Positions 21,790-63,504 of a stretch of 64,000 nucleotides of DNA are shown piece by piece. The notes below the pieces were generated by a model that did not search any database, was not told the origin of the DNA, and saw only the letters and a program-made list of their open reading frames with translations. Numbering within the stretch: position 1 is the stretch's first letter; each line of letters starts with the position of its first letter. The stretch covers positions 222,076 through 286,075 of the forward strand of contig CBDEGZ010000003.1 in assembly GCA_965238175.1 (NCBI GenBank). The letters run 5' to 3'. The stretch comes from Gammaproteobacteria bacterium. Its GTDB lineage: Bacteria; Pseudomonadota; Gammaproteobacteria; CAJXQU01. Both the position numbers and the translations under genes were made by a program.

Positions 21790-21810
21790 TCGAAAATTAA
21801 ATATATAAGG

Positions 21811-44669: not shown

Positions 44670-44700
44670 TAAAGAAACGTTATTGAACGTTTATAATTAG

Positions 44701-44739
44701 CCTATCCAACTTTATATTAAGTTTAAGTTGGATAGGTTT
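44701..44739 (+). terminator. Rho-independent terminator of hppA (12-bp stem, 12-nt loop, TTT tail)
   Basis: cctatccaactt-tatattaagttt-aagttggatagg followed by ttt. It begins 32 bp after the hppA stop. The IS481 copy is inserted immediately at its U-tract. Confidence 0.6.
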
Positions 44740-44742
44740 ACT

Positions 44743-45968
44743 TGTAGAAATTCAGATTTGATCTGACAGTTACCCAATTATCAGTAACCGACTGTCAGGT
44801 TAAGTTTAATTCACAAACTTTTCCTTCCAGATAGCTTGTCCGTCGATGAGTGTTTCCATCGGCGTCCTCCCGCAGCACATTTTGCCTTGGTGAGTTCGTT
44901 GAGTATTGTATTTGAGCAACCATTCGTCAAGGTCGAGTTGCAGTTCATCAATCGATTGGTAAATTTTCTTACGCAAAGCGACTTGATAAAACTCATTGAG
45001 GATCGTCTTATGGAATCGCTCACAAATACCATTCGTCTGAGGTGATTTGACCTTGGTTTTGGTGTGTTCGATATTGTTCAACGCCATATAAAGCTGATAA
45101 TCATGCTGGTCAGCTCGCCCACAATACTCCGTCCCTCTATCTGTCAAAATGCGCAACATAGGCAAACGTTGTTCTTCGTAGAATGGGAGGACGCGGTCAT
45201 TGAGCATGTCAGCTGCCGTAATCGGTGTTTTAGTCGGGTACAGTTTCGCGTGAGCGACCTTGCTGTAAGTATCAACAAACGTTTGTTGATAAACCCGACC
45301 AATGCCTTTGAAAGTACCGACATAGTAAGTATCTTGCGAGCCAAGATAACCAGGGTGTGCCGTTTCTATCTCGCCACAAGCCTCATCGTCGTCTTTTTTG
45401 CGTTCCATCGCCGCGACTTGAGACTCAGTGAGGATCAAGCCTTCACCAGCTACCTTATCAGACAATGCCTTCAGGCGATCTTTAAAGCAAGCAAGACCAT
45501 GACGAAGCCAGATACAACGAACGCCACTGGGTGAGACAAATGTTCCCCGTTTGCGCAGCTCGTTACTGGTGCGCGTTTGACCATGTGCGGGCTCTTCCAG
45601 TGCATACTCGAGCACAACGGTTTCAATAGCCGGGTCGATTCTGTTTTTAAGATTTGGGGTACGCCGATTACGATCAAACAAGGCTTCTACACCGCCTTCA
45701 TCAGCCGCTTCTTTGTAGCGATAAAATATATCTCTGGACAAACCCATCATCTTGCAGGCTTTTGAGACATTGCCGAGTTCTTCAGCGAGATTGAGTAGAC
45801 CAACTTTATGTTTTATAACTTTGTCATTAGTATGAATCATGAGAGTTACCTCTTTGTGTTTTGATGTTTACGTTGCAGTTACATCAAAGCGGGTAACTCT
45901 CACTAAATCAAGCGTCGCTACGCTCCGCTTGATTTAGTGATGTGTCAGATTGGGTCTAAACTTCTACA
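44743..45968 (-). mobile_element. IS481-family insertion sequence, copy 1 (1226 bp) with 7-bp target-site duplication GTTTACT
   Basis: Identical to the copy at 62266-63491. Imperfect ~24-bp terminal inverted repeats: TGTAGAAaTTcAGAtttgATCTGA / TGTAGAAgTTtAGAcccaATCTGA. Flanking direct repeat gtttact (44736-44742 and 45969-45975). Confidence 0.85.
44806..45840 (-). CDS. IS481-family DDE transposase (344 aa)
   Basis: N-terminal HTH ('LSRDIFYRYK') and rve-type integrase core ('...RILTDRGTEYCG...', 'NGICERFHKTILNEF'). It differs from the second copy by one residue (I/T). Confidence 0.9.
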   Translation of the reverse strand: MIHTNDKVIKHKVGLLNLAEELGNVSKACKMMGLSRDIFYRYKEAADEGGVEALFDRNRRTPNLKNRIDPAIETVVLEYALEEPAHGQTRTSNELRKRGTFVSPSGVRCIWLRHGLACFKDRLKALSDKVAGEGLILTESQVAAMERKKDDDEACGEIETAHPGYLGSQDTYYVGTFKGIGRVYQQTFVDTYSKVAHAKLYPTKTPITAADMLNDRVLPFYEEQRLPMLRILTDRGTEYCGRADQHDYQLYMALNNIEHTKTKVKSPQTNGICERFHKTILNEFYQVALRKKIYQSIDELQLDLDEWLLKYNTQRTHQGKMCCGRTPMETLIDGQAIWKEKFVN

Positions 45969-45982
45969 GTTTACTTATATTG

Positions 45983-46546
45983 CTACTGATATTCATACGT
46001 ACGAAATAAGATATTCTGACTTTTTTCGAGGATAAATACTTTGTTTCCTTCAAGCTCTAAATTGAGTTTTAGAGGATATGTTATTTTGATATTTTTAGCT
46101 TGTGCTGATTTTACAAGACTTTCAATGTCTCCTCTTGTTTCAATTTCTATTTCCTGAAGAAGTTCGATCATATAATCAGAATGCCTTATTGCATCAATGC
46201 TACCTCCATTTATATTGTACCCACCCCCTAAAAGCCCATATATAGATCCGTCTTTCAATTCGATAAAAGTAGAAACTCCGGTTCTACGAAATTGATTGTG
46301 TGTATTCTCGTTTATTGGACGAGATAATCCCGTAATGCCTTTAAGTTTATAAAGCTCTATAGATTCTGGCTAATCTCTATGTAGTATTTCCACGATTTCT
46401 TTTTTTACCCAACTTCCATGAAGGAATATACCAATAAAAAATACACTGTCATTAGTTATCCTTGCAAATAACAAAGGCCCAGTCCTTTTATGAAGCCATC
46501 TTTTTCTATTGTTTCTCCAAGGTGAAAATGATGTATTCCCCAATCA
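45983..46546 (-). pseudogene. Disrupted gene of unknown function (in-frame TAG at 46370-46372; upstream frameshift relative to 46585-46851)
   Basis: The minus-strand translation reads '...RTGPLLFARITNDSVFFIGIFLHGSWVKKEIVEILHRD*PESIELYKLKGITGLSRPINE...KDGSIYGLLGGGYNINGGSIDAIRHSDYMIELLQEIE...'. It is continuous apart from one stop. The upstream ORF (46585-46851) ends 38 nt before it in another frame. Confidence 0.4.
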
Positions 46547-46584
46547 TTCAAAAGTGAATCATCGTAATCAAGCTTCTTTAGGCC

Positions 46585-46851
46585 TCAGCTTAGATACGGA
46601 TTAACGTTTTCACCGTTTCTGAATTGATTTTCGATATTATCTAATGAATCTTTAAATTCTGTAGGACACTCAAAAGTACTAGATTTGTTTACATATCTTT
46701 TGCATGGAAATATTTCTCGTAGTTTCACGTTAAAATACTGAAAGGCAATATCCTCTACGCTTTTATTTTCGTCGGGATCGTATCCTCTTTCCTTTAGGAA
46801 ATATAATAGTAGCTTTCTCCAATCTTCAACTAAGTTTATTTCCACTTCCAT
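46585..46851 (-). CDS. Hypothetical small protein (88 aa); possibly the N-terminal piece of the disrupted downstream gene
   Basis: ORF only, no recognisable motif ('MEVEINLVEDWRKLLLYFLKERGYDPDE...'). Confidence 0.3.
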   Translation of the reverse strand: MEVEINLVEDWRKLLLYFLKERGYDPDENKSVEDIAFQYFNVKLREIFPCKRYVNKSSTFECPTEFKDSLDNIENQFRNGENVNPYLS

Positions 46852-46879
46852 AGTTAACCTTTGGACTGTTATACCTCAG

Positions 46880-47608
46880 TTAATAATCCCCAAACCGATT
46901 TTGCAAAGCCGCTACAGTTGCTAAGGCTGCGGTTTCAGTACGCAAAATTCTAGAACCAAGCTTGATCGCAATGAATTCATTCTTTTCTAAGGTTTCAATT
47001 TCTGATCGACTTAAGCCACCTTCTGGCCCGATAACCAAACTGACTGTTTTTATTTGATCTGAAAAATCAGAAAGAGTTTGTTCTGCATCCGGGGCCAAGA
47101 TCAATTTTAGATCTTGTTCATTTGTTGTCTGTAGATCTTCGAGTTTTTTGAGTTCTGTAAGCTCAGGGATCTGGTTTCTTCCACACTGTTCACAGGCGCT
47201 GATAATGACTTTTCCCCAGTGATCGAGTTTTTTTTCAGTTCTTTTTTGATCGAGTTTTACATTTGAGTAAGTGGTGATCAAAGGTGTAATTTTATTCACT
47301 CCAAGCTCAACCGCTTTCTGAATGGTGAAATCCATTTTGTCGCCTTTGGATAAGCCTTGGATCAACTCGATACTGATCGGGGATTCTCTTTCGATATCGA
47401 TAAATTCATTTACTTTAACTTCTACATTTGATTTATGGATCGAAGTTACTACTCCATTAAATTCACCACCCTGTCCGTTAAATAAAACGACAGCTTGATC
47501 TGGCTTCATGCGTAAAACACGGGCGACATGATGGCCTGCCGTTTCGGACAAAATTGTTGATTCCTCTACTTTTAGATTTTGATCTATGAACAGTCGAGTA
47601 GTTACCAT
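46880..47608 (-). CDS. rsmE: 16S rRNA (uracil1498-N3)-methyltransferase
   Basis: 242 aa. N-terminal PUA-like region and a C-terminal SPOUT region ('LVIGPEGGLSRSEIE', 'GSRILRTETAALA'). Confidence 0.85.
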   Translation of the reverse strand: MVTTRLFIDQNLKVEESTILSETAGHHVARVLRMKPDQAVVLFNGQGGEFNGVVTSIHKSNVEVKVNEFIDIERESPISIELIQGLSKGDKMDFTIQKAVELGVNKITPLITTYSNVKLDQKRTEKKLDHWGKVIISACEQCGRNQIPELTELKKLEDLQTTNEQDLKLILAPDAEQTLSDFSDQIKTVSLVIGPEGGLSRSEIETLEKNEFIAIKLGSRILRTETAALATVAALQNRFGDY

Positions 47609-48973
47609 TTAATTATCACTCACAGCGTGATCAATACTTTCAAGCGCAACTTTCGCCATCATTTTTATTTCATCTTCATTGATCACGTAAGGTGGCATAA
47701 AGTAGATCACATCACCCATTGGCCTTAGCAAAACACCTTGCTGCATAGCATAGTGGAAGGCCTTTCGTCCTCGCCGTTCTTGCCAGTCGAATGGTTCTTT
47801 TGTGTTTTTATTTTTAACCATTTCGATTGCTAGAATCATCCCTGTTTGTCTAACTTCAGCTATATGTGAGTGCTTACTATACCCGGATGTTGATTGTTTT
47901 ATAGTAGCCGCGAGTGTTTTGTTATTTTCGATTACATTGTCTTGTTCAAAAATATCCAATGTTGCATGTGCAGCCTGGCATGCTAAAGGGTTTCCGGTGT
48001 AGCTGTGAGAGTGTAAAAAGCCAGTTAAATTCGTAAAGTCATCATAAAAAGCTTGATAAATAATTTCGCTGGTTAGCACAGTAGATAGTGGTAAATACCC
48101 ACCAGTGATCCCTTTTGAAAGACACATGAAGTCGGGACTAATATCAGCCTGCTCACAAGCAAACATGGTACCGGTTCGGCCAAAGCCGGTGGCGATTTCA
48201 TCGGCGATCAAATGTACCTCATATTTATCGCAAGCTTCGCGCAGAAGTGTCAGATAGATCGGATGATACATGCGCATAAAACCTGCGCCCTGGACTAATG
48301 GTTCTACAATCACTGCACAAATTTCGTCAGATTGATCGGCCAGAATTTTTTCCATTTTGACAAACTGCTGTCGTGAATAATCTTCCCAACTTTGTCCTTG
48401 TTCTCGATGATAACAATCCGGAGAAGGTACGGTGATCACATCTAATAATAATGAACCATATGTTTTTTTATAAAGTGGTACATCACAGACGGAAAGCGCG
48501 CCTAGAGTTTCACCATGATATGCATTTCCAAGATTTACAAAGCGCTGTTTATTTGATTTGCCGACATTTTGCCAATAATGAAAACTCATTTTCATGGCAA
48601 TTTCGACAGCGCAAGAACCGTTGTCTGCATAAAAACAACGATCAAGTCCTTCTGGTGTGATTGAAACCAGTCGTTCTGAAAGGCGTACAACCGGTTCATG
48701 GGTGAAACCTGATAGCATGACTTGCTCTAAGGTGCCAAGCTGATCAGAAATTGCCTGGTTTATGCGCGGATTTGCATGTCCAAACAGGTTTACCCACCAG
48801 GAACTAATTGCATCTAAATATCGATTCCCATCATGATCTTCAAGCCAGACACCCTCGCCTTTTTTGATCGGGATGGGTGGCCAGGATTCATGATCTTTCA
48901 TTTGCGTGCAGGGATGCCAGACGGTGTTCATATCACGTTGTGCGAGATTAAAATTGCTATGTTGGGTTATCAT
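47609..48973 (-). CDS. bioA: Adenosylmethionine-8-amino-7-oxononanoate aminotransferase
   Basis: Class-III PLP aminotransferase with BioA-specific N-terminus ('VWHPCTQMKDHE...PIPI.KGEGVWL.D.DG..YLDAISSWWVNLFGH') and PLP lysine context 'FMCLSKGITGGYLPLS'. Confidence 0.9.
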   Translation of the reverse strand: MITQHSNFNLAQRDMNTVWHPCTQMKDHESWPPIPIKKGEGVWLEDHDGNRYLDAISSWWVNLFGHANPRINQAISDQLGTLEQVMLSGFTHEPVVRLSERLVSITPEGLDRCFYADNGSCAVEIAMKMSFHYWQNVGKSNKQRFVNLGNAYHGETLGALSVCDVPLYKKTYGSLLLDVITVPSPDCYHREQGQSWEDYSRQQFVKMEKILADQSDEICAVIVEPLVQGAGFMRMYHPIYLTLLREACDKYEVHLIADEIATGFGRTGTMFACEQADISPDFMCLSKGITGGYLPLSTVLTSEIIYQAFYDDFTNLTGFLHSHSYTGNPLACQAAHATLDIFEQDNVIENNKTLAATIKQSTSGYSKHSHIAEVRQTGMILAIEMVKNKNTKEPFDWQERRGRKAFHYAMQQGVLLRPMGDVIYFMPPYVINEDEIKMMAKVALESIDHAVSDN

Positions 48974-49004
48974 TAGGCAATTATATAGTGGAACTGGACT
49001 CGCC

Positions 49005-49463
49005 GTGATAAGTGCAATACAAAAATTTTTTAGTGAACGGATTTCTGTTCCGGAATCAACAGATACACAACGACAAAAGGCATTACAAATTGCTGCATCG
49101 GTTTTAATGATCGAGATTAGCCGATCAGATATGCATGTTTCTGAAACTGAAGAACAAACGATTTTGTCGGCACTACAAAAAACATTCTCGCTTGATCAAA
49201 AAGAGTCAGAGAATTTGATGTCGTTGGCAAATGATAAAACGGATCAAGCAATTTCTTTTCACGAATTTACGCGTGAGATAAACGATCAATTTTCAGCAGA
49301 GGAAAAGATCAATTTAGTCAGATTACTTTGGGATGTTGCGATAGCCGATGGTGAGATTGATAAGTATGAAGATTTTTATATTCGAAAAATTTCTGATCTG
49401 CTTTATGTTTCACACAGTGATTTTATCCGTATGAAGCACAAAGCTATCGAGAATAAACCTTAA
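49005..49463 (+). CDS. TerB-family (tellurite-resistance TerB-like / DjlA N-domain-like) protein
   Basis: '...LLWDVAIADGEIDKYEDFYIRKISDLLYVS' TerB-fold signature. GTG at 49005 is proposed because the ORF-track ATG (48906) lies inside bioA on the other strand. Confidence 0.55.
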   Translation: MISAIQKFFSERISVPESTDTQRQKALQIAASVLMIEISRSDMHVSETEEQTILSALQKTFSLDQKESENLMSLANDKTDQAISFHEFTREINDQFSAEEKINLVRLLWDVAIADGEIDKYEDFYIRKISDLLYVSHSDFIRMKHKAIENKP

Positions 49464-49933
49464 GAGACTTCTTGCTCGAATGATAGATCACCGATCATTG
49501 CAGTAATCAATTGATCTTCAAATTCTATACGAGACGTGAGAAGTTCTCCTAATTTGGATATATCATTTTGTAGATGATTTTCGATAACGGCAGAATCTAA
49601 TGGTTCATACCGTTCATTGAATTCTATTGCAGCTTGAGTTGAATCAGAAATTAAGGGGTAAGTTTTTTCTGCCGTATTGACAACAGTTTTACGCCGTTCT
49701 TTACCGTCAGCGATTCGTTCGTATAAACCAAAGTGAGCTGAAGCGATGTAATCAACTAAAACTTCGCAGAATTTTTGTAAGCTATCTTTAACGGATGTTT
49801 CGGCTTTAAACGGCTTTAAGCCAGAGACTTCACACAGTAACACCAACATTTCTCGGCGTTCTTGTAGCATTTTTTGGATAATTTCTTGGGTTTGATCACG
49901 AGGTTCGAGTGCTGATATCTCTTCTTGCGTCAT
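49460..49933 (-). CDS. rsd: Rsd/AlgQ-family regulator of sigma-70
   Basis: 157 aa. 'EVLVDYIASAHFGLYERI' matches the Rsd/AlgQ conserved core. Confidence 0.65.
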   Translation of the reverse strand: MTQEEISALEPRDQTQEIIQKMLQERREMLVLLCEVSGLKPFKAETSVKDSLQKFCEVLVDYIASAHFGLYERIADGKERRKTVVNTAEKTYPLISDSTQAAIEFNERYEPLDSAVIENHLQNDISKLGELLTSRIEFEDQLITAMIGDLSFEQEVS

Positions 49934-50220
49934 GACAGTATTAGCTCCTTATTATTTATCATTTAGATTTTAGAGACCCTTGAGTCTCTTTCCCTGATAG
50001 AGACAATGCAAGAAGAAGGCCTATCTAATTTTTTGGACAATGCTTGAGGTTACAAATTGTTTCTTACCTGCTAAGCTATTGAAATATATTTAGAATATCT
50101 ATTACTATTCTTAATCAATAAAAATAAGTGTTTTTGCTTGTTTTCAACTATTTGATCTATAGATGGTTATAATAGTGGGCTAATTAATGGGTAGGGTAAA
50201 CTCATACTAACGTACAGAAT

Positions 50221-51657
50221 ATGGAAATTACAGGCTACAAAATAGATAGAACAATTGGTGAAGGTGGCATGGCGACAGCTTACCTTGCCGAACAGGAATC
50301 GCTAGGGCGGTTGGCTGTACTTAAAGTGCTCAACACAGACAATCGAGATACCAAAGAAAATGTAGAACGCTTTCTAAATGAAGGCCGTATTGTTGCTTCC
50401 CTTAACCACCCGCACATTATTACTATTTATGATATTGGTATTGAAGAAGATTTTATCTTTATCTCAATGGAGTATATCGAAGGTGGTGACCTAAAAGAAC
50501 GTCTAAAGAATCCGGTTTCTGCTTCAGAAGCAATCGATATTATCAAAAAGGTCTGTAGTGGTCTTGACGTTGCGCATCGTAAAGGCATAGTTCATCGTGA
50601 TGTAAAACCAGGCAATATTTTGTTCAAAACCAGTGGTGAGCCATTACTGACCGATTTTGGGATCGCCAAGCGTTTGACGATGGATCAAGACCTTACTATG
50701 ACGGGTGTTTTCCTCGGTAGTCCAAACTATATGGCACCTGAGCAAGCAGAAGATGGGCCGATTGACGGGCGCGCAGATATTTATGCGTTGGGTGTTATTT
50801 TGTATGAAATGCTCGTCGGACAGAAGCCCTATAAGTCAGAATCTATAATTGATGTCATTGTTCAACATAAACAAGCGCCAGTGCCCATCCTGCCAGAAAA
50901 ACACCAGGTCTATCAGCCCCTGTTGAACATGATGATGGCTAAAAATCGTAAAAATCGTTTTAGAGATGCTGCTAGTGTCCTGCATTTTATTCATCACCTT
51001 GAGCAACTGGAATCGTTAAAAGTTCCAACAGATGATCAGGTAATAAAAGAAATGCCTGCCGATGAAGTATTCACATCTCATCTGCGACAACCAAAAAAAG
51101 CACGGAAATGGTCGACTTATGTTTTGACGGGGTTACTGCTGTTAACCGCATCAGGATTTGCTTTTGTTTCATTTATGAATACGAAACTCAGCCACGAAAT
51201 TTCTACTCTCAGTACTATTGAAGCAGAAGAAGCTAATCTAGAGTCATTCGTGAAGCTCGCACCAATTCCAGAGGTAGGATCAAAACCACTGAAAGTGAAT
51301 AATCCTGATGAGGTTGAGGAGGTATCAAAAGCATTAGGCTGGTTAGCGAGAAAAAGTCTGGAAGAATATCGTTTGACCGCCCCCCCGAAAGACAATGCTT
51401 ATTATTATTATGTGCGCTTGCTTGAGATCAATCCGAACAACAATATTGCCAGACAAGGTTTGCGACACATTGCAGAGAAATTTGCTCTTCTCGCAGAAAG
51501 AGAGTTGGCGGATAACCATTACCAAGCAGCTGCGGGTTACATTGAAATTGGTTTACAGATTAATCCCAGTAATCCAACATTGAAACAACTAAAATTGTTA
51601 ACTGCCACGAGCAAGCGTAGTGTTTTTGATAGTATCAAGAGCTTATTCAGCTCCTAG
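50221..51657 (+). CDS. Hanks-type Ser/Thr protein kinase with TM segment and C-terminal TPR repeats
   Basis: 'IGEGGMATAY', 'AVLKVL', 'HRDVKPGNILF', 'DFGIAK', 'SPNYMAPE'. A TM helix lies at ~300-320; TPR-like 'YYYYVRLLEINPNNNIARQGL...YQAAAGYIEIGLQINPSN' follows. Confidence 0.85.
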   Translation: MEITGYKIDRTIGEGGMATAYLAEQESLGRLAVLKVLNTDNRDTKENVERFLNEGRIVASLNHPHIITIYDIGIEEDFIFISMEYIEGGDLKERLKNPVSASEAIDIIKKVCSGLDVAHRKGIVHRDVKPGNILFKTSGEPLLTDFGIAKRLTMDQDLTMTGVFLGSPNYMAPEQAEDGPIDGRADIYALGVILYEMLVGQKPYKSESIIDVIVQHKQAPVPILPEKHQVYQPLLNMMMAKNRKNRFRDAASVLHFIHHLEQLESLKVPTDDQVIKEMPADEVFTSHLRQPKKARKWSTYVLTGLLLLTASGFAFVSFMNTKLSHEISTLSTIEAEEANLESFVKLAPIPEVGSKPLKVNNPDEVEEVSKALGWLARKSLEEYRLTAPPKDNAYYYYVRLLEINPNNNIARQGLRHIAEKFALLAERELADNHYQAAAGYIEIGLQINPSNPTLKQLKLLTATSKRSVFDSIKSLFSS

Positions 51658-51667
51658 TCAGAATTAT

Positions 51668-52240: not shown

Positions 52241-52303
52241 AAATAAGATTATAGCAAGGATGTGATTTTAAAGGCTATTTTCTGGAGAGTTCCTCTATAG
52301 ATT

Positions 52304-54976: not shown

Positions 54977-55009
54977 TCCAAAAAAAAGCTTAAACATGGA
55001 TTATAAATC

Positions 55010-58000
55010 ATGGTAGTTGATCAAAAAGTGAGAGATGAAGCACTTGATCCAGGTCGATCATTTATTGTTCAGGCCCCGGCTGGTTCTGGAAAAACGGAAT
55101 TGCTCATGCAACGCTATCTGGCGTTATTAGCGACGGTTGAAAATCCTGAAGAAGTTATTGCGATTACTTTTACGCGTAAAGCAACAGCGGAAATGCGCGG
55201 TCGAATTCTTAGTGCATTAGAGAATGCCGCTAGTAATCAAAAGTCCAATCAACCACATCATCAAAAAACCTGGCAACTTGCTCAGCAGGTTTTGATCAGA
55301 GATGAAACATACAACTGGAATTTGCAACAGAATCCAAATCGTTTGCAGATCCAAACTATTGATGCGATGTGTGCGAGTTTGACTAGACGTATGCCGGTGT
55401 TGTCTCGCGCAGGTGTTAATCCACAAACGATAGAAAAAGCCGATGAGTTGTATCGAAAAGCAGCAAGAGCAACATTGCAAGCATTACCGAAATCAAAAGA
55501 GGTCGGAATTCTTTTATCTCATCTTGATAACAACTGGCAAAAATTGGAGTCAATGATCACCAACTTGTTACAAAAACGAGATCATTGGTTACGACATTTA
55601 CCGATTAATGGAGAACTGCAACAAGAGCGAGAAACTTTACAGGCAAGCCTTTGCGCGATCATTTGTCAGACCTTAGAACAAGCCTATCAAAACATACCAG
55701 CAGCTTTAATTGAGGAATGGATCGGTCTAAGTAAATATGCTGCAGAAAATTTATTATCTGAAAAAAAACAAACGCCACTGACCGCTTGTGCTGGTTTACA
55801 ACAATGGCCAGAACCATTTCCGGAAGAATTACATTTTTGGGAAGGATTGATTGAATTGGTCTTAACGAAAGATAATAAATGGCGAAAAGCAGTGAATAAA
55901 ACAATTGGGTTTCCGACCTCGACTGGTGAGCAAAAACAGTTGCAGGCGGAGATGAAATTAAGCATTTTGAGTTTAATCGAAACGCTAAGTGAAATTCCAG
56001 ATTTGATCGGAAATTTTCAAGTGATAAGACAGTTGCCGAAGCCAGGTTATAGTGAAGATCAATGGCAAATTTTAGGATCCTTATTTGTCGTTTTAAAATT
56101 AGCCGTTGCGCAACTACAAATTGTATTTCGTGAACAAGGGCAAGTTGACTTTACTGAGGTCAGTATTGCTGCAGTTTACGCACTCGGACATGCTGAACAA
56201 CCAACCGATCTTGCGTTAGCTCTGGATTATAAAATTAATCATTTATTAGTGGATGAATTTCAAGATACATCTATAAGTCAGTACTCACTACTGCAAAGAA
56301 TCATCGCAGAATGGGAAATTGATGATGGGAGAACATTATTCCTCGTCGGTGATCCCATGCAATCTATTTACCGTTTTCGTGAAGCAGACGTTGGATTATT
56401 TATAAATGTTCAACAACAAGGCGGGCTAGGACATGTCCCTTTAACATCGTTAAAACTAACGGTAAATTTCAGATCAAATCACGAAGTAGTTGAATGGGTT
56501 AACCACACTTTTCAACGAGCAATGCCGGTGAAAAATTCAGTCACAAATGGCGCAGTATCCTATACACCTTCACAGGCATTTCACCCTTCTGAATCAGAGG
56601 CACTTGTTTCAGTACATCCGTTTATCGATACGGATAAAAAACAAGAAGCATTGTTAGTTTGTGATCTAGTTCGACAAGGGATAGAGCAGGAAAAAAATAT
56701 TGCTGTTTTAGTGCGTAGCAAATCGCATCTTTTGCAGATTACATCTGCACTAAAAGATCAAAAATTATCTTATCAGGCCGTCGAAATTGAAACCCTGGCG
56801 CAACAACCTGTTATTAACGATCTTCGTTCTTTGACATGTGCGTTATTACATCTCGCAGATAAGATTTCCTGGTTATCAATTTTGCGGGCACCTTGGTGTG
56901 GTTTGATATTGGATGATTTGGAAAGGTTAATGGGTCGATCAAATTTATCTGTTTGGAGTTTGATTAACGCAGATCAAAAAGTTAATTCGATCAGTAATGA
57001 TGGGAAAAAACGACTTCTCCGAGTACGAGCAATTATTAATAAAGCGTTGTTGCAACGACAACGTGTTTCTCTATCACGTTGGGTTGAAGGCGTTTGGGTT
57101 TCTTTAGGTGGTCCAGCGTGTTTGGAAAATGATTCTGATCTTGATAATGCGAATTCTTTTTTTGAATTATTGAATCAACTTGAAGATGCCGGCGAACTTT
57201 CTTCTGTCGAAATTTTGGATCAATCAATTAAAAATTTGTTTGCTTCAGCAGGTCAAGTCACGGATTGTTCTGTGCAATTGATGACGATCCATAAAGCTAA
57301 AGGATTAGAGTTTGATACTGTGATCTTGCCTGCACTTGAGCGACAACCAAGGAATGATGAGCGGCAATTGTTACAATGGACTGAATGGCACAATACAGAA
57401 GAAAACGCGGATGAATTATTACTTGCACCGATAGAAGAAACAGGCCGTGAAAAGGAACGCATAAATCAATATTTATCTTTGCTAGAGAAAGAACGATCAC
57501 GACACGAAACCGTACGACTTTTATATGTTGCGGTGACCAGAGCAAAACAACAACTGCATTTGATTGGCTGTGCAGAATACAATACTAAAAACGAATTAAA
57601 ATCACCCGATCAACGTTCTTTGTTAGCATGCATTTGGCTGTCCATTAAAGATCAGTTTGAAGAAAAATCAGATCAAAAAGTTGAGATAAATTCTGTTACT
57701 GAGCCAACCGAAACTTTCACTCCTTACATAAGCAGATTACCCACTGATTGGCTGTCGCCAGAAAGTTCCGAATCGGTTGATTGGCATGTTGATTTAATTG
57801 ATGCGAAAAAGAATAAACAAGCAGAAAAAGAACAAGATTTAGAATTTATCTGGGCAGGTGCTCCAGCAAGGCATATAGGAATCGTTGTGCATCGACTTTT
57901 ACGGCAGATTGCAGAGGAAGGTCTTGAGCAATGGGATCAGAAACGAGTTGATTCTATAACATCGTTGATTAAAACATTGCTTTTGGAATCTGGATTATCT

Positions 58001-58399
58001 AAAAGCAGATTATCAGTAGCGATTAAAAAAGTTTTGGAATCAATTAATCAAATATTGCAAGACGAACGAGGTCGTTGGATTTTGAGCGCTGAAAACCGGC
58101 AAGCTCAAAGTGAGTACGCACTTACCGGTATTGTTAATGGGGAACTGATCAATATCATTATTGATCGGACATTTGTTGATCAAAATGGTACACGTTGGAT
58201 CATTGATTATAAAACTGGCAGTCACGAAGGTGGCGACCTCGAGGGCTTTCTTGATAATGAACAATTGCGTTATCGTGAGCAACTCGAACGTTATGCAAAA
58301 ATAATCGCAAATCTCGAAAGTCGACCTGTTAAATTAGCGCTTTACTTCCCAAAGTTTTGTGGTTGGCGCGAATGGTCATTTCCTGATGCGGGACACTGA
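55010..58399 (+). CDS. AddA-like UvrD/Rep-family helicase with C-terminal PD-(D/E)XK nuclease
   Basis: 'FIVQAPAGSGKTELLMQRYLALL' (motif I), 'LVDEFQDTS' (II), 'TIHKAKGLEFDTVIL', 'LLYVAVTRAKQQL', C-terminal 'WIIDYKTG' nuclease motif. Confidence 0.8.
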   Translation: MVVDQKVRDEALDPGRSFIVQAPAGSGKTELLMQRYLALLATVENPEEVIAITFTRKATAEMRGRILSALENAASNQKSNQPHHQKTWQLAQQVLIRDETYNWNLQQNPNRLQIQTIDAMCASLTRRMPVLSRAGVNPQTIEKADELYRKAARATLQALPKSKEVGILLSHLDNNWQKLESMITNLLQKRDHWLRHLPINGELQQERETLQASLCAIICQTLEQAYQNIPAALIEEWIGLSKYAAENLLSEKKQTPLTACAGLQQWPEPFPEELHFWEGLIELVLTKDNKWRKAVNKTIGFPTSTGEQKQLQAEMKLSILSLIETLSEIPDLIGNFQVIRQLPKPGYSEDQWQILGSLFVVLKLAVAQLQIVFREQGQVDFTEVSIAAVYALGHAEQPTDLALALDYKINHLLVDEFQDTSISQYSLLQRIIAEWEIDDGRTLFLVGDPMQSIYRFREADVGLFINVQQQGGLGHVPLTSLKLTVNFRSNHEVVEWVNHTFQRAMPVKNSVTNGAVSYTPSQAFHPSESEALVSVHPFIDTDKKQEALLVCDLVRQGIEQEKNIAVLVRSKSHLLQITSALKDQKLSYQAVEIETLAQQPVINDLRSLTCALLHLADKISWLSILRAPWCGLILDDLERLMGRSNLSVWSLINADQKVNSISNDGKKRLLRVRAIINKALLQRQRVSLSRWVEGVWVSLGGPACLENDSDLDNANSFFELLNQLEDAGELSSVEILDQSIKNLFASAGQVTDCSVQLMTIHKAKGLEFDTVILPALERQPRNDERQLLQWTEWHNTEENADELLLAPIEETGREKERINQYLSLLEKERSRHETVRLLYVAVTRAKQQLHLIGCAEYNTKNELKSPDQRSLLACIWLSIKDQFEEKSDQKVEINSVTEPTETFTPYISRLPTDWLSPESSESVDWHVDLIDAKKNKQAEKEQDLEFIWAGAPARHIGIVVHRLLRQIAEEGLEQWDQKRVDSITSLIKTLLLESGLSKSRLSVAIKKVLESINQILQDERGRWILSAENRQAQSEYALTGIVNGELINIIIDRTFVDQNGTRWIIDYKTGSHEGGDLEGFLDNEQLRYREQLERYAKIIANLESRPVKLALYFPKFCGWREWSFPDAGH

Positions 58400-58492
58400 C
58401 ATAGGGAATGGTTGGGCCTCTTTGGTTTTTATAGGCGCCAATCTACGACTCTAAGATGGTGGAGTGGATTTCATACATCGATTTGGAATTAA

Positions 58493-59467
58493 CTAAGCAA
58501 TTTCTGCTTCATCTGCATCTATAGTTTCAACACTTTTTTCCAGTGAAATAACCGCTGTTACTTCATTTCCTTTATCGTTGTATATCAAATTATCTAGACT
58601 CATCAAATTGGATGAAGCAATGCCTCTACCATGAGTATCGAAAACACGTTCAGGACTAAACTCCATGTATTTTCCCCAGTCAAAACCTTCCCCTTGATCC
58701 CTAATTATTATTGTTATATTTTTTTTATTACGCTTAAATGTCACATTGACAAATTTTTCCTTATTTTCAGGTAAGGCCAAACGTCTATCAACCTCATCTT
58801 TCCATTGACCTTTTTTATCTAGCTCAGACTTTTCATGATAGGTGATACCAATATTGCCATGCTCTACAGCATTTACGAATAGCTCGGACAAACCAATAAC
58901 AACTTTTTGTGGTTTTGGACAAGTTCTTGCCAAATACGTTGCTAAAGACTGCGCTTCATCTAATGTCTGGAATTGAAACTGCGCGTAATTTATCATCCCT
59001 GCTGAAATAATACTTTCCATTAAAGACTGTTGAACGCGAACAGCTTTTTTACTTTCCGCAACGGCGCTCCCTACCATTGACAATAAAACATCTTCATCAA
59101 ATGGCTTCGTCAAATAAAAATATGCGCCAGCGTCAATCCCTTCTTTAATATCTTCTTTTGTTGATCTTGCTGTTTGTAATATAACGGGTATGTTTTTTAA
59201 GGCAGGATCTTGTTGAATTATTTCCATCAACTCTAAACCTGTCATAACTGGCATCATACGATCAAGTAATAACACATCTATCTTATGCGCAACTAATTTT
59301 AAGATTTCTAAGGCTTCAGCTCCATTACTCGCAAAACTTAGTTTGTAATCTTCATTTTCAAGGTAAAACTCAATAATTTCTCTATTGAGTGGTTCGTCAT
59401 CAACGATGAGGATATGTGGTTTGTTTTCTTGAATAGAATTACATGTCTCGTTCATATTCATTACCAT
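58493..59467 (-). CDS. Response regulator receiver fused to RsbW/SpoIIAB-like anti-sigma-factor serine-kinase (HATPase_c_2) domain
   Basis: REC domain ('ILIVDDEP...LLDRMMPVMTG...LTKP'), then 'LSELFVNAVEHGN...DQGEGFD', typical of GHKL partner-switching kinases. Confidence 0.7.
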   Translation of the reverse strand: MVMNMNETCNSIQENKPHILIVDDEPLNREIIEFYLENEDYKLSFASNGAEALEILKLVAHKIDVLLLDRMMPVMTGLELMEIIQQDPALKNIPVILQTARSTKEDIKEGIDAGAYFYLTKPFDEDVLLSMVGSAVAESKKAVRVQQSLMESIISAGMINYAQFQFQTLDEAQSLATYLARTCPKPQKVVIGLSELFVNAVEHGNIGITYHEKSELDKKGQWKDEVDRRLALPENKEKFVNVTFKRNKKNITIIIRDQGEGFDWGKYMEFSPERVFDTHGRGIASSNLMSLDNLIYNDKGNEVTAVISLEKSVETIDADEAEIA

Positions 59468-59489
59468 TGATTAGTAGTACCTTAATAAT

Positions 59490-60494
59490 TTATGCCGGAT
59501 TTTTTTCAGAAACTGAATTGTTTCTAGCTTTGCTTTTACTCAATTCAGAATCCTGAGTTTTGCATGCTTCTAATAACAAGGAAAATTTAAATATACTGCC
59601 GCCTTCGGGATTTTGTTCAACCCATATATGACCTTCATTTAATTCAATGATACTTTTACAAATTGCTAAACCTAAACCAGTTCCACCTACATATGAGCTA
59701 GTTTTACTACTCTGAATAAACTTATCAAATACTGACTTTAACTCATTATCTGGGATCCCAACACCTTGATCGGCTATAGATACTTCTAGAGCTGGATATT
59801 GTTCTTTATCTATTAACTGAACACTATGGCAGTAGGAAATGGTTATCTCTTTACCATTTTCTGAAAACTTAATCGCATTGATTATAATATTTCTAATAAC
59901 CTGTTCAATTTTAACTGGATCAAAAAAAGCAACTGTCTCACATTCAGGAACTATAATTTTTACGGAAATAGTTTTTTCATCTAAAACCATCTGCTGTTCA
60001 GCCAAGACAATATCAACAACACTTTGTATATCTGACTTTCTACGGCTAATAACAAATTGACCTGATTCAAATTTTGATAAATCTAGCAAGTCATTAAGTA
60101 ATGTTAGTAATTTTTTGCCGCTTATATTTATATTACTGAAATATTTTTCTAACCTTTCTAGCTTACTTTTATCTATATCTTTTTTACCAAAATCTGAAAA
60201 ACTTATAATCGCATGTAGTGGTGTCCTAAGTTCGTGAGACATATTCGCCAAAAATTCACTTTTAGATCGATTGCGCGCCTCAGCTTTTGCTACAACAGCA
60301 TGAAAGCTATTTGTCTTTTCTTCAATGATTCTCTGTAGGTATATATTACGTTCAAACACTGCAAACGAATCACTTGTGTTTTGAATACTGCGCTGAACCC
60401 GATCGCGTAACGCCTTAATCACTTTATCTTTTTTATCTAGTTTCTTCTGCAACTTTTCAATTTCTTTTTCTAACACTTCTTCTGATGAGGTCAT
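59490..60494 (-). CDS. Sensor histidine kinase (coiled-coil N-terminus, HisKA + HATPase_c)
   Basis: H-box 'FLANMSHELRTPLHAI'. N-box 'IRNIIINAIKFS', G1 'DQGVGI', G2 'GGTGLGLAI'. Confidence 0.85.
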   Translation of the reverse strand: MTSSEEVLEKEIEKLQKKLDKKDKVIKALRDRVQRSIQNTSDSFAVFERNIYLQRIIEEKTNSFHAVVAKAEARNRSKSEFLANMSHELRTPLHAIISFSDFGKKDIDKSKLERLEKYFSNINISGKKLLTLLNDLLDLSKFESGQFVISRRKSDIQSVVDIVLAEQQMVLDEKTISVKIIVPECETVAFFDPVKIEQVIRNIIINAIKFSENGKEITISYCHSVQLIDKEQYPALEVSIADQGVGIPDNELKSVFDKFIQSSKTSSYVGGTGLGLAICKSIIELNEGHIWVEQNPEGGSIFKFSLLLEACKTQDSELSKSKARNNSVSEKNPA

Positions 60495-60500
60495 ATCTGA

Positions 60501-61754
60501 TTAACCTCCAATCACGACACCAGTTAATGTTTGGTTTACATGAATAGAATTGAATTGCTCACCATAGGTACTAAACCCCATAAAGTTTAATGGCATCAAG
60601 ATCTCTTCCACTTCATCTTTTATACCCGTTTCAAGAATTTCCATACGACGATGTATACAGTCAAAGCCTAATGTCATTTCAATATGATCAAAATCGTTTA
60701 CTAATGCATTGACTCGTTCAGCCAAGGAATTAACCAAGCCTTCACATTTGCCTACTGTTAGGGGCAGGCCTGCATCCATTGCACATGCAAAAGATAGAGA
60801 TTCATCTGCATGATAATTTTTAATAGATCGTACGTACCATTCATCTCCAACTTGCAACATAACTGGAAACGTCGAATAAACTTCCATAGTCAGCTGTTCT
60901 TTGCTCACACCAATAATTTCTGCTAATTCTGTTGCAGCAGGACCACCATCTATTTCGTAAACAATACGCTTACCAGGGTCTGCTTCGGTTATAGTCATCT
61001 CCATGTTTGAAGGTGTATAGTGCTGCTCTTTAAAAACTTTGAAATTAGACTTGGATTCAATAAGTGCAATTGCAGCTGTACCCGTTTGAAATTTTCCATC
61101 AGAAAAAACCGACGTTTTCGTAAAAGTTAGGCTATCGCCTGCAGAACCGCCAATAACCTCGACTCCGCACAGAGCACTGTGCAAACCTGCTGCAACATGT
61201 TCTTCCATCATAGAAAGACCATCGATGAGTAAAAATCCAAACATTTTATTTGCATCAAACTTGTCTGAAAACTTCAATTGTTTTTTTAGTTTTTCCGCAA
61301 TTTCTGACGCAGCAGCGGTACTAAAAGTGTCCAGTTTATTAATTGTTTCTATGTGAAAGTTAAAAGCAGCCTTCGAAAAGCTTGCCGCAACAATGCCGCC
61401 ATTTTGGTATGTCGAGCCAATTTCTCCTGCGGTTGTACAGCCAATAATCGGACATTCAAAAGTCTCGTTCAGTAAATCTGCCAGCAGCTCGAGATCATAT
61501 TTATCGGAACAGAAAAACGTAATACCTGCCAAGTTATCTGTATGAAGATTATTCCGCATGTATTTAACAACTTCTCGCTCATCTAGAGTTGTAATCTCGG
61601 TACGAAATACATTTCCAACCACTAAAACATCTCCTGCAAATAAACCTGAAATAATCAAATTTTCAGCCACAATAACATTGTAGCGACACCAAGGTTCATA
61701 ACTTAACTTATTAACAAGTACATTTTCTAACGACAGAGCCTCAATAAAACACAC
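60501..61754 (-). CDS. FIST-domain sensory protein (FIST_N + FIST_C)
   Basis: 417 aa. The C-terminal 'LNFMGFSTYGEQF' resembles the FIST_C signature. It is operonic with the HK and the REC-kinase. Confidence 0.6.
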   Translation of the reverse strand: MCFIEALSLENVLVNKLSYEPWCRYNVIVAENLIISGLFAGDVLVVGNVFRTEITTLDEREVVKYMRNNLHTDNLAGITFFCSDKYDLELLADLLNETFECPIIGCTTAGEIGSTYQNGGIVAASFSKAAFNFHIETINKLDTFSTAAASEIAEKLKKQLKFSDKFDANKMFGFLLIDGLSMMEEHVAAGLHSALCGVEVIGGSAGDSLTFTKTSVFSDGKFQTGTAAIALIESKSNFKVFKEQHYTPSNMEMTITEADPGKRIVYEIDGGPAATELAEIIGVSKEQLTMEVYSTFPVMLQVGDEWYVRSIKNYHADESLSFACAMDAGLPLTVGKCEGLVNSLAERVNALVNDFDHIEMTLGFDCIHRRMEILETGIKDEVEEILMPLNFMGFSTYGEQFNSIHVNQTLTGVVIGG

Positions 61755-61850
61755 TTACTTAACATTTTAAATTTAAAAAACCTCTTTTGTGTACGTTTAT
61801 TGCTTTAATCATTATCGAGTAGCACCCAAAAACTAATAGAGGAAGCAATA

Positions 61851-62225
61851 ATGGCGAAAATTTTGGCAGTTGATGACGCTAAACTAATGCGAGAACTTGT
61901 GAGTGTAAGTTTAGCAACACAAGGTCACGAGGTTGTGACTGCAAATGACGGGCAAGAAGCTTTGGATTACGCAAAGAATAATTCTGTTGATTTAGTTATA
62001 AGTGATGTAAACATGCCAAATTTAAACGGCATTAACCTGCTCAAACAACTACGCGAGTTACCACATTATTCAGAAACACCTATCCTTATGTTAACAACTG
62101 AAGATGCTCAGTACCGTAAAGATAAAGCGCGTACTATGGGTGCTAATGGCTGGCTAACAAAACCCTTTGATCCACCAAGATTACAAAGCGCTGTAGAAAA
62201 ACTTCTTATTAAAGCAACAGCATAA
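61851..62225 (+). CDS. Single-domain CheY-like response regulator
   Basis: 'ILAVDDAKLMRELV...DLVISDVNMPNLNG...LMLTTE...TKPF'; Asp pocket present. 124 aa. Confidence 0.85.
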   Translation: MAKILAVDDAKLMRELVSVSLATQGHEVVTANDGQEALDYAKNNSVDLVISDVNMPNLNGINLLKQLRELPHYSETPILMLTTEDAQYRKDKARTMGANGWLTKPFDPPRLQSAVEKLLIKATA

Positions 62226-62265
62226 GTTAAGAACATCTGCTTGAAGAAATAACGCTGCTTTAAAA

Positions 62266-63491
62266 TGTAGAAATTCAGATTTGATCTGACAGTTACCCAA
62301 TTATCAGTAACCGACTGTCAGGTTAAGTTTAATTCACAAACTTTTCCTTCCAGATAGCTTGTCCGTCGATGAGTGTTTCCATCGGCGTCCTCCCGCAGCA
62401 CATTTTGCCTTGGTGAGTTCGTTGAGTATTGTATTTGAGCAACCATTCGTCAAGGTCGAGTTGCAGTTCATCAATCGATTGGTAAATTTTCTTACGCAAA
62501 GCGACTTGATAAAACTCATTGAGGATCGTCTTATGGAATCGCTCACAAATACCATTCGTCTGAGGTGATTTGACCTTGGTTTTGGTGTGTTCGATATTGT
62601 TCAACGCCATATAAAGCTGATAATCATGCTGGTCAGCTCGCCCACAATACTCCGTCCCTCTATCTGTCAAAATGCGCAACATAGGCAAACGTTGTTCTTC
62701 GTAGAATGGGAGGACGCGGTCATTGAGCATGTCAGCTGCCGTAATCGGTGTTTTAGTCGGGTACAGTTTCGCGTGAGCGACCTTGCTGTAAGTATCAACA
62801 AACGTTTGTTGATAAACCCGACCAATGCCTTTGAAAGTACCGACATAGTAAGTATCTTGCGAGCCAAGATAACCAGGGTGTGCCGTCTCTATCTCGCCAC
62901 AAGCCTCATCGTCGTCTTTCTTGCGTTCCATCGCCGCGACTTGAGACTCAGTGAGGATCAAGCCTTCACCAGCTACCTTATCAGACAATGCCTTCAGGCG
63001 ATCTTTAAAGCAAGCAAGACCATGACGAAGCCAGATACAACGAACGCCACTGGGTGAGACAAATGTTCCCCGTTTGCGCAGCTCGTTACTGGTGCGCGTT
63101 TGACCATGTGCGGGCTCTTCCAGTGCATACTCGAGCACAACGGTTTCAATAGCCGGGTCGATTCTGTTTTTAAGATTTGGGGTACGCCGATTACGATCAA
63201 ACAAGGCTTCTACACCGCCTTCATCAGCCGCTTCTTTGTAGCGATAAAATGTATCTCTGGACAAACCCATCATCTTGCAGGCTTTTGAGACATTGCCGAG
63301 TTCTTCAGCGAGATTGAGTAGACCAACTTTATGTTTTATAACTTTGTCATTAGTATGAATCATGAGAGTTACCTCTTTGTGTTTTGATGTTTACGTTGCA
63401 GTTACATCAAAGCGGGTAACTCTCACTAAATCAAGCGTCGCTACGCTCCGCTTGATTTAGTGATGTGTCAGATTGGGTCTAAACTTCTACA
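62266..63491 (-). mobile_element. IS481-family insertion sequence, copy 2 (1226 bp) with 7-bp target-site duplication TTTAAAA
   Basis: Base-for-base near-identical to copy 1, same orientation. Flanked by tttaaaa on both sides (62259-62265 and 63492-63498). Confidence 0.85.
62329..63363 (-). CDS. IS481-family DDE transposase (344 aa)
   Basis: Same protein as 44806-45840 ('SRDTFYRYK' variant). Confidence 0.9.
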   Translation of the reverse strand: MIHTNDKVIKHKVGLLNLAEELGNVSKACKMMGLSRDTFYRYKEAADEGGVEALFDRNRRTPNLKNRIDPAIETVVLEYALEEPAHGQTRTSNELRKRGTFVSPSGVRCIWLRHGLACFKDRLKALSDKVAGEGLILTESQVAAMERKKDDDEACGEIETAHPGYLGSQDTYYVGTFKGIGRVYQQTFVDTYSKVAHAKLYPTKTPITAADMLNDRVLPFYEEQRLPMLRILTDRGTEYCGRADQHDYQLYMALNNIEHTKTKVKSPQTNGICERFHKTILNEFYQVALRKKIYQSIDELQLDLDEWLLKYNTQRTHQGKMCCGRTPMETLIDGQAIWKEKFVN

Positions 63492-63504
63492 TTTAAAAAC
63501 AGCG

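Follow-up and report, generated by a model that had tools for sequence, protein, structure and literature searches.

The prototype of the IS481 family of insertion sequences (ISs), IS481 of Bordetella pertussis, uses the target NCTAGN. IS3, by comparison, relies on a programmed -1 frameshift, while IS481-family elements of about 1.2 kb encode a transposase with helix-turn-helix (HTH) and DDE (rve) domains in a single open reading frame (ORF). For IS10 and IS50, "protection from outside activation" is known, a fold-back inhibition of translation from read-through transcripts. The termini of IS481-family elements carry the signature TGT..ACA, and their target site duplications (TSDs) range from 2 to 15 bp, mostly being 6 bp (PMC10045372).

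The window analyzed here is a stretch of 64,000 nucleotides of contig CBDEGZ010000003.1, from a 3.33-Mb gammaproteobacterial genome (assembly GCA_965238175.1). It contains two copies of one IS, referred to as A and B, with the following boundaries, duplications and terminal repeats:

44743..45968, minus strand: IS copy A, IS481 family, 1226 bp, its transposase encoded on the minus strand
62266..63491, minus strand: IS copy B, likewise 1226 bp and oriented as copy A
44736..44742: left TSD of copy A, GTTTACT, the first G of which is the last stem base of the post-hppA hairpin
45969..45975: right TSD of copy A, GTTTACT
62259..62265: left TSD of copy B, TTTAAAA
63492..63498: right TSD of copy B, TTTAAAA
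44743..44768, plus strand: transposase-distal inverted repeat of copy A, TGTAGAAATTCAGATTTGATCTGACA
45943..45968, minus strand: transposase-proximal inverted repeat of copy A, TGTAGAAGTTTAGACCCAATCTGACA

The initial annotation had announced two identical copies, described in its details as 1226 bp long, nearly base-identical and in direct orientation, each with its own intact TSD. Alignment with 50-bp flanks and a repeat scan reproduced these boundaries and the orientation exactly, with the starts of the copies 17,523 bp apart and 16,297 bp between them. "Nearly base-identical" is the right term, and "identical" was slightly too strong, since three mismatches were found (99.76% identity, 0.24% divergence): T/C at 45364/62887, T/C at 45397/62920, and A/G at 45728/63251. 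Two of these are synonymous (E159 and K148), and the other is the single Ile/Thr transposase codon noted earlier, I38 in copy A and T38 in copy B. Similarity ends abruptly on both sides at TGTAG.../...CTACA, and the two distinct 7-bp TSDs are perfect on both sides of each copy; the chance of a 7/7 match, calculated from the base composition of the window, is ~1e-4 per element. The 26-bp inverted repeats are imperfect, distal and proximal repeats matching at 19/26 positions, and the four IS ends were the sole sites in the window for the two repeat sequences, with none in 100 shuffles. The G+C content of the IS is 45%, versus 38.5 to 40% for the host DNA, as would be expected for an acquired element. 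Very likely, these copies of a single IS entered the chromosome in separate transposition events, each into its own intergenic gap of a resident, syntenic segment. Such a situation, with ISs lying between genes on a stretch of chromosome that is normal in other respects, is ordinary and well understood.

Each copy encodes one transposase:

44806..45840, minus strand: transposase of copy A, 344 aa, with HTH_29 and rve/rve_3 domains, D170/D234/E274, and the derived residue I38
62329..63363, minus strand: transposase of copy B, 344 aa, which has T38 and R182 as in the consensus

In both proteins, Pfam placed the HTH at residues 11 to 73 and rve/rve_3 at residues 162 to 319. The earlier assignment to the IS481 family was borne out by a score of 276.5 bits against the NCBIfam model NF033577 (transpos_IS481; cut-off, 224), whereas the IS3 model reached 83.1 bits, under its own cut-off of 160, and the IS21, IS630, and ISNCY models fell far under theirs. 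Both copies have D170, D234, and E274, which are kept in 109, 108, and 109 of 109 full-length homologues, respectively; their position in the rve fold points to a role as the DDE catalytic triad. Residue 38 is threonine in all 109 homologues, and the I38 of copy A is a derived change within the HTH. Copy A may be defective through T38I, and since T38 is invariant in these homologues, copy B appears the better candidate for an active source.

The element shares with the IS481 family the single-ORF HTH and DDE (rve) transposase without a frameshift, the length of about 1.2 kb, the TGT...ACA termini with imperfect inverted repeats, and a short TSD inside the family range. It differs from IS481 in targeting AT-rich DNA with a T-rich core rather than NCTAGN. 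Its TSD is 7 bp, as opposed to 6 bp in most members of the family (PMC10045372). The nearest transposase in the protein collection was 92% identical, and the nearest DNA, among the matches listed from species-representative genomes, was ~82% identical (Arenicella sp. and "Ca. Oxydemutatoraceae" metagenome-assembled genomes [MAGs]). Annotated plasmid and E. coli homologues were 70 to 78% identical and bore the merely generic label "IS481 family transposase." The element is an unnamed IS481-family IS, and usual ISfinder practice would give such an element a new name. Movement would be carried out by the DDE transposase, presumably by a copy-out/paste-in route through a circular intermediate as in the IS3/IS481 group, and the 7-bp TSD would arise from staggered 7-bp cuts; to our knowledge, copy-out/paste-in lacks biochemical demonstration for IS481 itself.

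The ends and duplications were reproducible against other copies. The transposase-proximal end begins with TGTAGAAGT in 18/18 related elements, and perfect 7-bp TSDs flank 4 of the 15 related elements that are full length. Matching flanks of 3 to 6 or 8 to 12 bp were found in none of these 15, and 11 of them had no matched TSDs. A scan of the genome collection with a degenerate inverted-repeat pattern located at least 94 loci in many Proteobacteria. A third transposase variant, P0385 (T38, W182), was taken to come from the same genome as the window, and this genome therefore probably holds at least three copies of the element.

Both insertions are in intergenic gaps between convergent genes, next to or within these structures:

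44701..44736, plus strand: hairpin 3' of the hppA stop codon, CCTATCCAACTT/AAGTTGGATAGG, from the fold of the reconstructed empty site
62243..62258: left half of a two-way terminator, now split, that follows the cheY-like gene, GAAGAAATAACGCTG C
63499..63514: right half of this terminator, A CAGCGTTATT TTTTT, overlapping the der stop codon at 63505-63507

The post-hppA hairpin has a 12-bp core, with 14 pairs in the minimum-free-energy fold (z = -4.7), and the insertion point of copy A is its 3' foot. The insertion of copy B splits the terminator between the cheY-like gene and der at the loop. In the IS-free relative L097, the orthologous terminator hairpin is uninterrupted and shows compensatory stem changes. 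Both insertions in the window thus touch terminator-like hairpins, with the loop serving as the TSD of copy B and the TSD of copy A starting from the last stem base, as would be seen if the element targeted intrinsic-terminator hairpins by structure and the sites were not merely tolerated AT-rich intergenic spots. This was judged unlikely. At the reconstructed empty sites of the four related elements with intact 7-bp TSDs, no hairpin was found (z, -1.2 to +0.4), so that hairpin targeting was unsupported as a lineage property. Gaps between convergent genes in compact genomes are, moreover, mostly terminators and the least harmful landing places. Survivorship combined with a preference for T-rich 7-mers, of which the TSDs GTTTACT, TTTAAAA, CTTTATT, ATTTAGC, ATTTTTG, and AATAAAG are the examples, explains both of the cases in the window.

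The transposase leader was predicted to be structured, as illustrated for copy A:

45902..45938, minus strand: leader hairpin 1 (stem, 13 bp), located after the inverted repeat and ahead of the Shine-Dalgarno helix
45841..45901, minus strand: long-range leader helix, in which GAGAGUUACC (45901-45892) pairs with GGUAACUCUC (45850-45841)

The long-range helix (predicted fold, z = -5.9) surrounds a small hairpin, and its pairs extend over the Shine-Dalgarno sequence as far as the AUG. The helix was found in 18/18 related leaders by independent folds, with compensatory changes. Pairing was possible in 86.8% of cells, versus at most 55% when the partners were slid, and 0/500 shuffles reached the observed value; these pairs were counted on a hand-specified helix, and RNAalifold on the leader alignment gave only a fragment of it because of indels in the alignment. 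A consensus scan flagged no consensus sigma-70 promoter in the leader. Transcripts reading in from outside, with der as a possible source at copy B and the rsmE operon at copy A, would include the 5' arm GAGAGUUACC, which would pair with GGUAACUCUC across the ribosome-binding site. The conserved leader structure suggests that transposase translation would thereby be kept low. Such an arrangement would resemble that of IS10 and IS50, in which pairing between a 5' leader segment and the ribosome-binding site is restricted to transcripts starting outside or upstream of that segment. The transposase family and the sequence are different from those of IS10 and IS50.

The same region has a counterpart in Rfam. 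Positions 1 to ~114 of the psRNA2 model (RF02349) correspond to the antisense of the transposase leader, and the match takes in the Shine-Dalgarno helix, the inner hairpin, and the inverted repeat. Scores against the model were 106 to 134 bits for related IS481-family elements of betaproteobacteria (gathering score, 65). The remainder of the model falls in variable flanking DNA outside the IS, which suggests that it represents an IS end rather than a free-standing small RNA gene. The four IS ends of the window scored 20.4 to 25.3 bits, below the gathering score, and the element was accordingly not accepted as a psRNA2 member, although it shares the helix architecture of the matching elements. 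A widespread sub-lineage that both targets terminator hairpins, at the loop or the stem foot, and transcribes its leader outward as a psRNA2 RNA is conceivable but improbable. Were it real, each insertion would remove a terminator and add an outward regulatory RNA beside host genes, which in this case would be der and the cheY-like gene. The two copies described here would then be instances of structure-directed, transcription-rewiring ISs and not passive passengers.

The DNA between the copies bears on whether they arrived together:

45969..62265: bracketed interval, 16,297 bp, resident chromosome running from a PD-T4-7-like pseudogene through rsmE, addB, addA, and FIST/HK/REC to the cheY-like gene
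45976..46860, minus strand: decayed PD-T4-7-like gene, outside the IS and missing from relatives

Most of the gene content listed in the initial annotation was recovered by Pfam, namely an RsmE-type methyltransferase, a class-III aminotransferase, TerB, Rsd/AlgQ, a Ser/Thr kinase, a PDDEXK_1 protein with a UvrD/PDDEXK helicase-nuclease (AddB/AddA-like), FIST, HisKA/HATPase, REC-HATPase_c_2, and a CheY-like REC protein. The label "DUF4124" for 51668-52240 was not reproduced, this ORF having no Pfam match at E <= 0.01. The pseudogene reported in the segment was identified as a decayed PD-T4-7 defence gene: its conceptual translation matched PADLOC PDLC04065 over residues 6 to 280 (E = 8.4e-38), and two in-frame stops and one or more frameshifts interrupt its reading frame. 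The gene was therefore rejected as an intact anti-phage defence gene despite this match.

The closest available relatives, L095 to L097, have DNA ~84% identical to that of the window. In L095 and L096, which are IS-free here, hppA adjoins rsmE, followed by a bioA-like gene, TerB, rsd, the Ser/Thr kinase gene, addB, and addA. In L097, also IS-free, der adjoins cheY, FIST, HK, and REC, with a 46-nt gap. By blastn, L095 9866-19711 corresponds to 46879-56726 of the window and L097 9386-13128 to 62225-58491, and collinearity with the relatives is broken exactly at the IS sites. For site A, the comparison is one of gene-level and blastn collinearity, the hppA-rsmE intergenic DNA of the relatives being too diverged for base-level alignment. 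Because IS-free relatives share the gene order on both sides, the interval is resident chromosome and not composite-transposon cargo. The relatives indicate that the sites were once empty and give no date for their filling.

An 18.7-kb IS-cargo-IS unit, acquired or still moving as one composite transposon, is thus very unlikely. The composite-transposon-like look remarked on earlier is a matter of appearance only: two complete direct copies bracket a gene set, much as Tn10 and Tn5 have other genes enclosed by a pair of ISs of one kind, and the outermost ends form a legitimate pair of inverted repeats, one of them distal and the other proximal. Arrival as a unit failed its tests, in accord with the independent transpositions read by the initial annotation. 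The outer flanks do not match (GTTTACT versus TTTAAAA) while the flanks of each single IS do, the interior keeps its collinearity with the hppA side and the der side in IS-free relatives, its G+C content of 38.5% is like that of the rest of the window (40%), and the cargo consists of housekeeping-type genes. The locus also differs from Tn10 and Tn5 in that no TSD surrounds the whole unit, the interior is resident and syntenic, and the copies are direct and not inverted. Equally remote is an origin by segmental duplication, as relics of inversion or recombination, or through an assembly artefact duplicating one IS: the 99.76% similarity, the shared orientation, and the 11/15 related elements without matched TSDs, which indicate that IS-IS recombination or decay occurs in the lineage, would be compatible with it, but similarity stops exactly at the inverted repeats with no common flanking sequence, each copy retains a perfect matched TSD that recombination between copies would have scrambled, a collapsed or duplicated assembly is disfavored by three fixed differences, one of them an amino acid change, and both protein variants are on record separately.

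Separate transposition of the two copies, as proposed in the initial annotation, is supported by the matched 7-bp TSD of each, by the differing outer flanks, and by the IS-free hppA-rsmE and der-cheY adjacencies in relatives. The accompanying terms "recent" and "active" are plausible in a relative sense only, given the 0.24% divergence, the intact ORFs and DDE triads, and the third variant; the insertions are weakly dated because the IS-free relatives are merely ~84% identical in DNA. Activity of the element is plausible from its intact ORFs and the near identity of its copies. Metagenome scans with a 32-nt IS end and with the reconstructed empty site B gave no match.

Homologous recombination between direct repeats of 1.2 kb can delete or excise the DNA between them. 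RecA-type recombination between copies A and B would delete 17,523 bp and leave one hybrid IS with GTTTACT to its left and TTTAAAA to its right. A 17.5-kb interval that includes the AddAB-like recombination genes could therefore be lost from this chromosome, in which one insertion also splits a conserved two-way terminator beside the essential GTPase gene der. The analysis adds to the IS481 family an unnamed element with defined ends and a 7-bp TSD, of which a gammaproteobacterial genome of 3.33 Mb probably has three or more copies. The practical value of the analysis is limited, and the current understanding of ISs is unchanged. Perhaps more useful to curators, Rfam psRNA2 seems to represent the antisense strand of a leader and end region in related IS481-family elements, which also share a conserved helix predicted to sequester the ribosome-binding site.

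Two insertion sequence (IS) copies, A and B, were delimited by aligning 44693-46018 against 62216-63541 and by a repeat scan. The copies were collinear and in the same orientation, and similarity stopped sharply at TGTAG... and ...CTACA. The scan placed their starts 17,523 bp apart with 16,297 bp between them, in agreement with the direct orientation and interval of about 16.3 kb proposed in the initial annotation. The copies had also been called identical, which holds as near identity and not in the strict sense, as they were 99.76% identical with three differing positions. Their ends carry imperfect 26-bp inverted repeats, TGTAGAAATTCAGATTTGATCTGACA and TGTAGAAGTTTAGACCCAATCTGACA, for which no further site was found in the window even at three mismatches and which never occurred in shuffles. 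The proposal that each copy has its own intact 7-bp target-site duplication was borne out, both being perfect; a random 7/7 flank match was calculated from the base composition of the window at ~1e-4 per element.

Features of the two IS copies
44743-45968, IS copy A, 1226 bp; transposase ORF at 44806-45840, minus strand
62266-63491, IS copy B, 1226 bp; transposase ORF at 62329-63363, minus strand
44736-44742 and 45969-45975, target-site duplication of copy A, GTTTACT, perfect over 7 bp, directly outside the IS
62259-62265 and 63492-63498, target-site duplication of copy B, TTTAAAA, perfect over 7 bp, directly outside the IS
IS position 622, first difference, T at 45364 (A) and C at 62887 (B)
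IS position 655, second difference, T at 45397 (A) and C at 62920 (B)
IS position 986, third difference, A at 45728 (A) and G at 63251 (B)

Each copy contains one minus-strand ORF of 344 aa, whose product begins with a winged helix-turn-helix (HTH) domain (Pfam HTH_29, residues 11-73) followed by rve/rve_3 integrase-core domains. Both copies retain D170, D234, and E274, which were conserved almost without exception across 109 full-length homologues. The transposase scored 276.5 bits with the NCBIfam IS481 equivalog model, against a cut-off of 224, supporting the original assignment to this family, while the IS3 model was failed with 83 bits against a cut-off of 160 and the other NCBIfam IS families were likewise failed. 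The length, single ORF, TGT...ACA termini, and short duplication also fit the IS481 family, whose duplications range from 2 to 15 bp and are mostly 6 bp (ISfinder data summarised in PMC10045372). The element is an unnamed new member of the family, and the pair of insertions is ordinary.

Database comparisons place the element in a very large and widely spread IS481 sub-lineage. The transposase gave 8000 protein matches at E <= 1e-30, the nearest with 92% identity, and a scan of a genome collection found the degenerate inverted-repeat pattern across many proteobacterial genomes. The nearest DNA among the matches listed was ~82% identical and came from an assembly of Arenicella sp. and a MAG of Ca. 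Oxydemutatoraceae; homologues of 70-78% identity annotated in plasmids and E. coli bear the plain label "IS481 family transposase." In an alignment, 18/18 related elements started with TGTAGAAGT at the transposase-proximal end, and the outside flanks differed among all of them. Perfect 7-bp duplications (ATTTTTG, AATAAAG, CTTTATT, and ATTTAGC) flanked 4 of the 15 related full-length elements, and matching flanks of 3-6 or 8-12 bp flanked none of the 15; both the IS ends and the duplication length are thus reproduced against other copies. The remaining 11 had no matched flank, owing to recombination or decay. A cluster of related copies was observed in a Ca. Oxydemutatoraceae genome (L068; OZ250161.1, 160001-168000), with full copies lacking matched duplications and three tandem 487-bp partial units (at 2635, 3122, and 3609), each starting at the proximal inverted repeat. 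This arrangement points to IS-mediated rearrangement at this locus.

For the left side, the closest relatives located via HppA were the gammaproteobacterial MAG GCA_045110495.1 (97% protein and ~84% DNA identity) and an ENA contig of 605 kb (93%). In both, hppA is followed directly by rsmE, a class-III aminotransferase gene, TerB, rsd, a Ser/Thr kinase gene, a small ORF, and addB-like and addA-like genes, with an hppA-rsmE gap of 112-155 nt and no IS. On the right side, GCA_045110495.1 has a convergent cheY-like gene 46 nt after der, then FIST, histidine kinase (HK), and REC-HATPase genes. By blastn, collinearity with IS-free relatives was interrupted exactly at the two IS sites, at L095 9702/9866 (window 44660/46879) for site A and at L097 9339/9386 (window 63503/62225) for site B. 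The G+C content of the bracketed interval (38.5%) agrees with that of the rest of the window (40%), whereas that of the IS is 45%. Arrival of the whole unit as a composite transposon is ruled out, because the outer flanks of the pair are unlike (GTTTACT versus TTTAAAA) and each IS is individually matched. Copies A and B are therefore independent IS481-family insertions into the resident chromosome, and the initial annotation was essentially right in reading them as independent transpositions, given their own duplications and the IS-free syntenic relatives on both sides. The matched duplications also imply that no recombination between A and B has taken place after they inserted. A separate synteny break, not IS-associated, lies inside the bracketed interval at the addA/REC-kinase junction. 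In the window the REC-HATPase_c_2 gene is convergent with addA (58399-58493), in the closest relative (L097:13126-13138) a Lactamase_B gene, bamC, and dapA come after it, and L098, a more distant relative, has the FIST/HK/REC module in yet another gene context; the signaling module thus has variable neighbors.

Two of the differences between the copies are synonymous (E159 and K148); through the third, residue 38 is isoleucine (I38) in copy A and threonine (T38) in copy B. T38 lies within the HTH and was invariant in 109/109 homologues, so I38 is the derived state, in copy A; the transposase of this copy may be impaired. Copy B encodes the consensus transposase. A third transposase variant from outside the window, P0385, has T38 but carries W182 in place of R182, which was otherwise invariant (109/109 homologues); as in copy A, the change is derived and falls on a conserved residue. 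P0385 is recorded on a 3,332,875-bp contig, equal in length to that listed for the proteins of the window. If P0385 belongs to the same genome, as assumed from this match in length, this genome holds at least three IS copies. Judged from these sequences, "recent and active" appears a reasonable description of the copies.

The empty sites were reconstructed by deleting each IS and one copy of its duplication. Empty site B reads GAAGAAATAACGCTG-C-TTTAAAA-A-CAGCGTTATTTTTTT, an A-tract, stem, loop, stem, and T-tract that make up a two-way intrinsic terminator lying between a convergent gene pair. The duplicated TTTAAAA forms the hairpin loop, and the der stop codon (63505-63507) lies inside the 3' arm. 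The orthologous hairpin is uninterrupted in the IS-free relative L097 (AAATAACGTCGTC-ATTACT-GACGACGTTATTTTTT), with compensatory stem changes that show the terminator to be conserved; copy B split it. Neither the IS end nor empty site B had a match in metagenome scans. At site A, the insertion is at the 3' foot of a 12- to 14-bp hairpin (44701-44736) that follows the hppA stop codon, and the duplication starts on the last stem base. Hairpin targeting as a lineage trait is unsupported, as a hairpin was absent from the reconstructed empty sites of all four related elements that keep matched duplications. Most simply, the sites reflect a bias toward T-rich 7-mers together with the persistence of insertions that fall harmlessly between convergent genes.

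A 128-nt leader separates the AUG from the proximal inverted repeat and folds much more stably than its shuffles do (-46.7 kcal/mol, z = -5.9). The predicted fold comprises a 13-bp hairpin and then a long-range helix, in which GAGAGUUACC (45901-45892) would pair with GGUAACUCUC (45850-45841); the 5' arm of the helix is GAGAGTTACC. The pairing extends over the Shine-Dalgarno sequence as far as the AUG. The same architecture was obtained for 18/18 related leaders, each folded independently, with 86.8% of cells paired versus at most 55% when partners were slid, and with compensatory A-U to G-C changes at two helix positions; 0/500 shuffles reached the observed pairing. A scan of the leader for consensus promoters flagged none. 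IS10 and IS50 are protected from read-through transcripts by fold-back structures, which the modeled helix resembles. It would similarly keep such transcripts from driving the transposase, a protection that is pertinent because der now reads into copy B past the destroyed terminator and the rsmE operon runs toward copy A.

The Rfam family RF02349 ("psRNA2") matched the antisense of the transposase leader plus inverted repeat in related betaproteobacterial IS481-family elements at 106-134 bits, with the remainder of the model falling in flanking DNA beyond the inverted repeat. The IS ends in the window scored only 20-25 bits, below threshold. From these alignments, the family looks like an IS end and not a stand-alone sRNA gene.

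Matches to RF02349
Related elements: L004:1217-1392; L080:955-1140; L060:6517-6697; L015:1675-1885; L041:297-523; L016:2118-2291
Window, sub-threshold: 45843-45984 and 63366-63534

The gene beside copy A (45976-46860, minus strand), initially annotated as pseudogenised, is indeed broken in frame, with at least one frameshift and two in-frame stops. Its conceptual translation matched PADLOC PDLC04065 (E = 8.4e-38), which identifies it as a decayed PD-T4-7-like gene for anti-phage defence; it is 33% G+C, and neither relative has it in the gap between hppA and rsmE. Together with the IS, it indicates that accessory DNA was acquired twice in this gap.

Elsewhere, an exopolysaccharide/capsule cluster of roughly 31.7 kb occupies ~10220-41963, inserted between genes that are adjacent in the closest relative, where only 100 nt separate them (L095 6897/6997). 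It encodes an initiating sugar transferase, GT2 and GT4 glycosyltransferases, a Wzx-like flippase, Wzy_C, Wza, and Wzc, as well as a sulfotransferase, a deacetylase, an alginate-lyase-like protein, and a 1696-aa repetitive surface protein. The 1696-aa ORF has large internal direct repeats, 76-97% identical (18076-20940), and a perfect 19-nt tandem array of ~27 or more units lies at or just past its 3' end (21685-22419); as the 19-nt unit is not a whole number of codons, each change in copy number would shift the reading frame. In the longest ORF of the Wzc-like tyrosine kinase (33079-35883), N-terminal residues 19-63 match the transposase family HTH_Tnp_1 (E = 9e-7), suggesting that a remnant of an IS3-type orfA is fused to the annotated start or overlaps it. 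No tRNA genes were found within the 64-kb window.

Recombination between the 1.2-kb direct repeats formed by copies A and B would delete 17,523 bp. The predicted deletion would remove one IS together with rsmE, the aminotransferase gene, TerB, rsd, the kinase gene, the AddAB-like pair, and the FIST/HK/REC/CheY module, and its product would be a hybrid IS with unmatched flanks.
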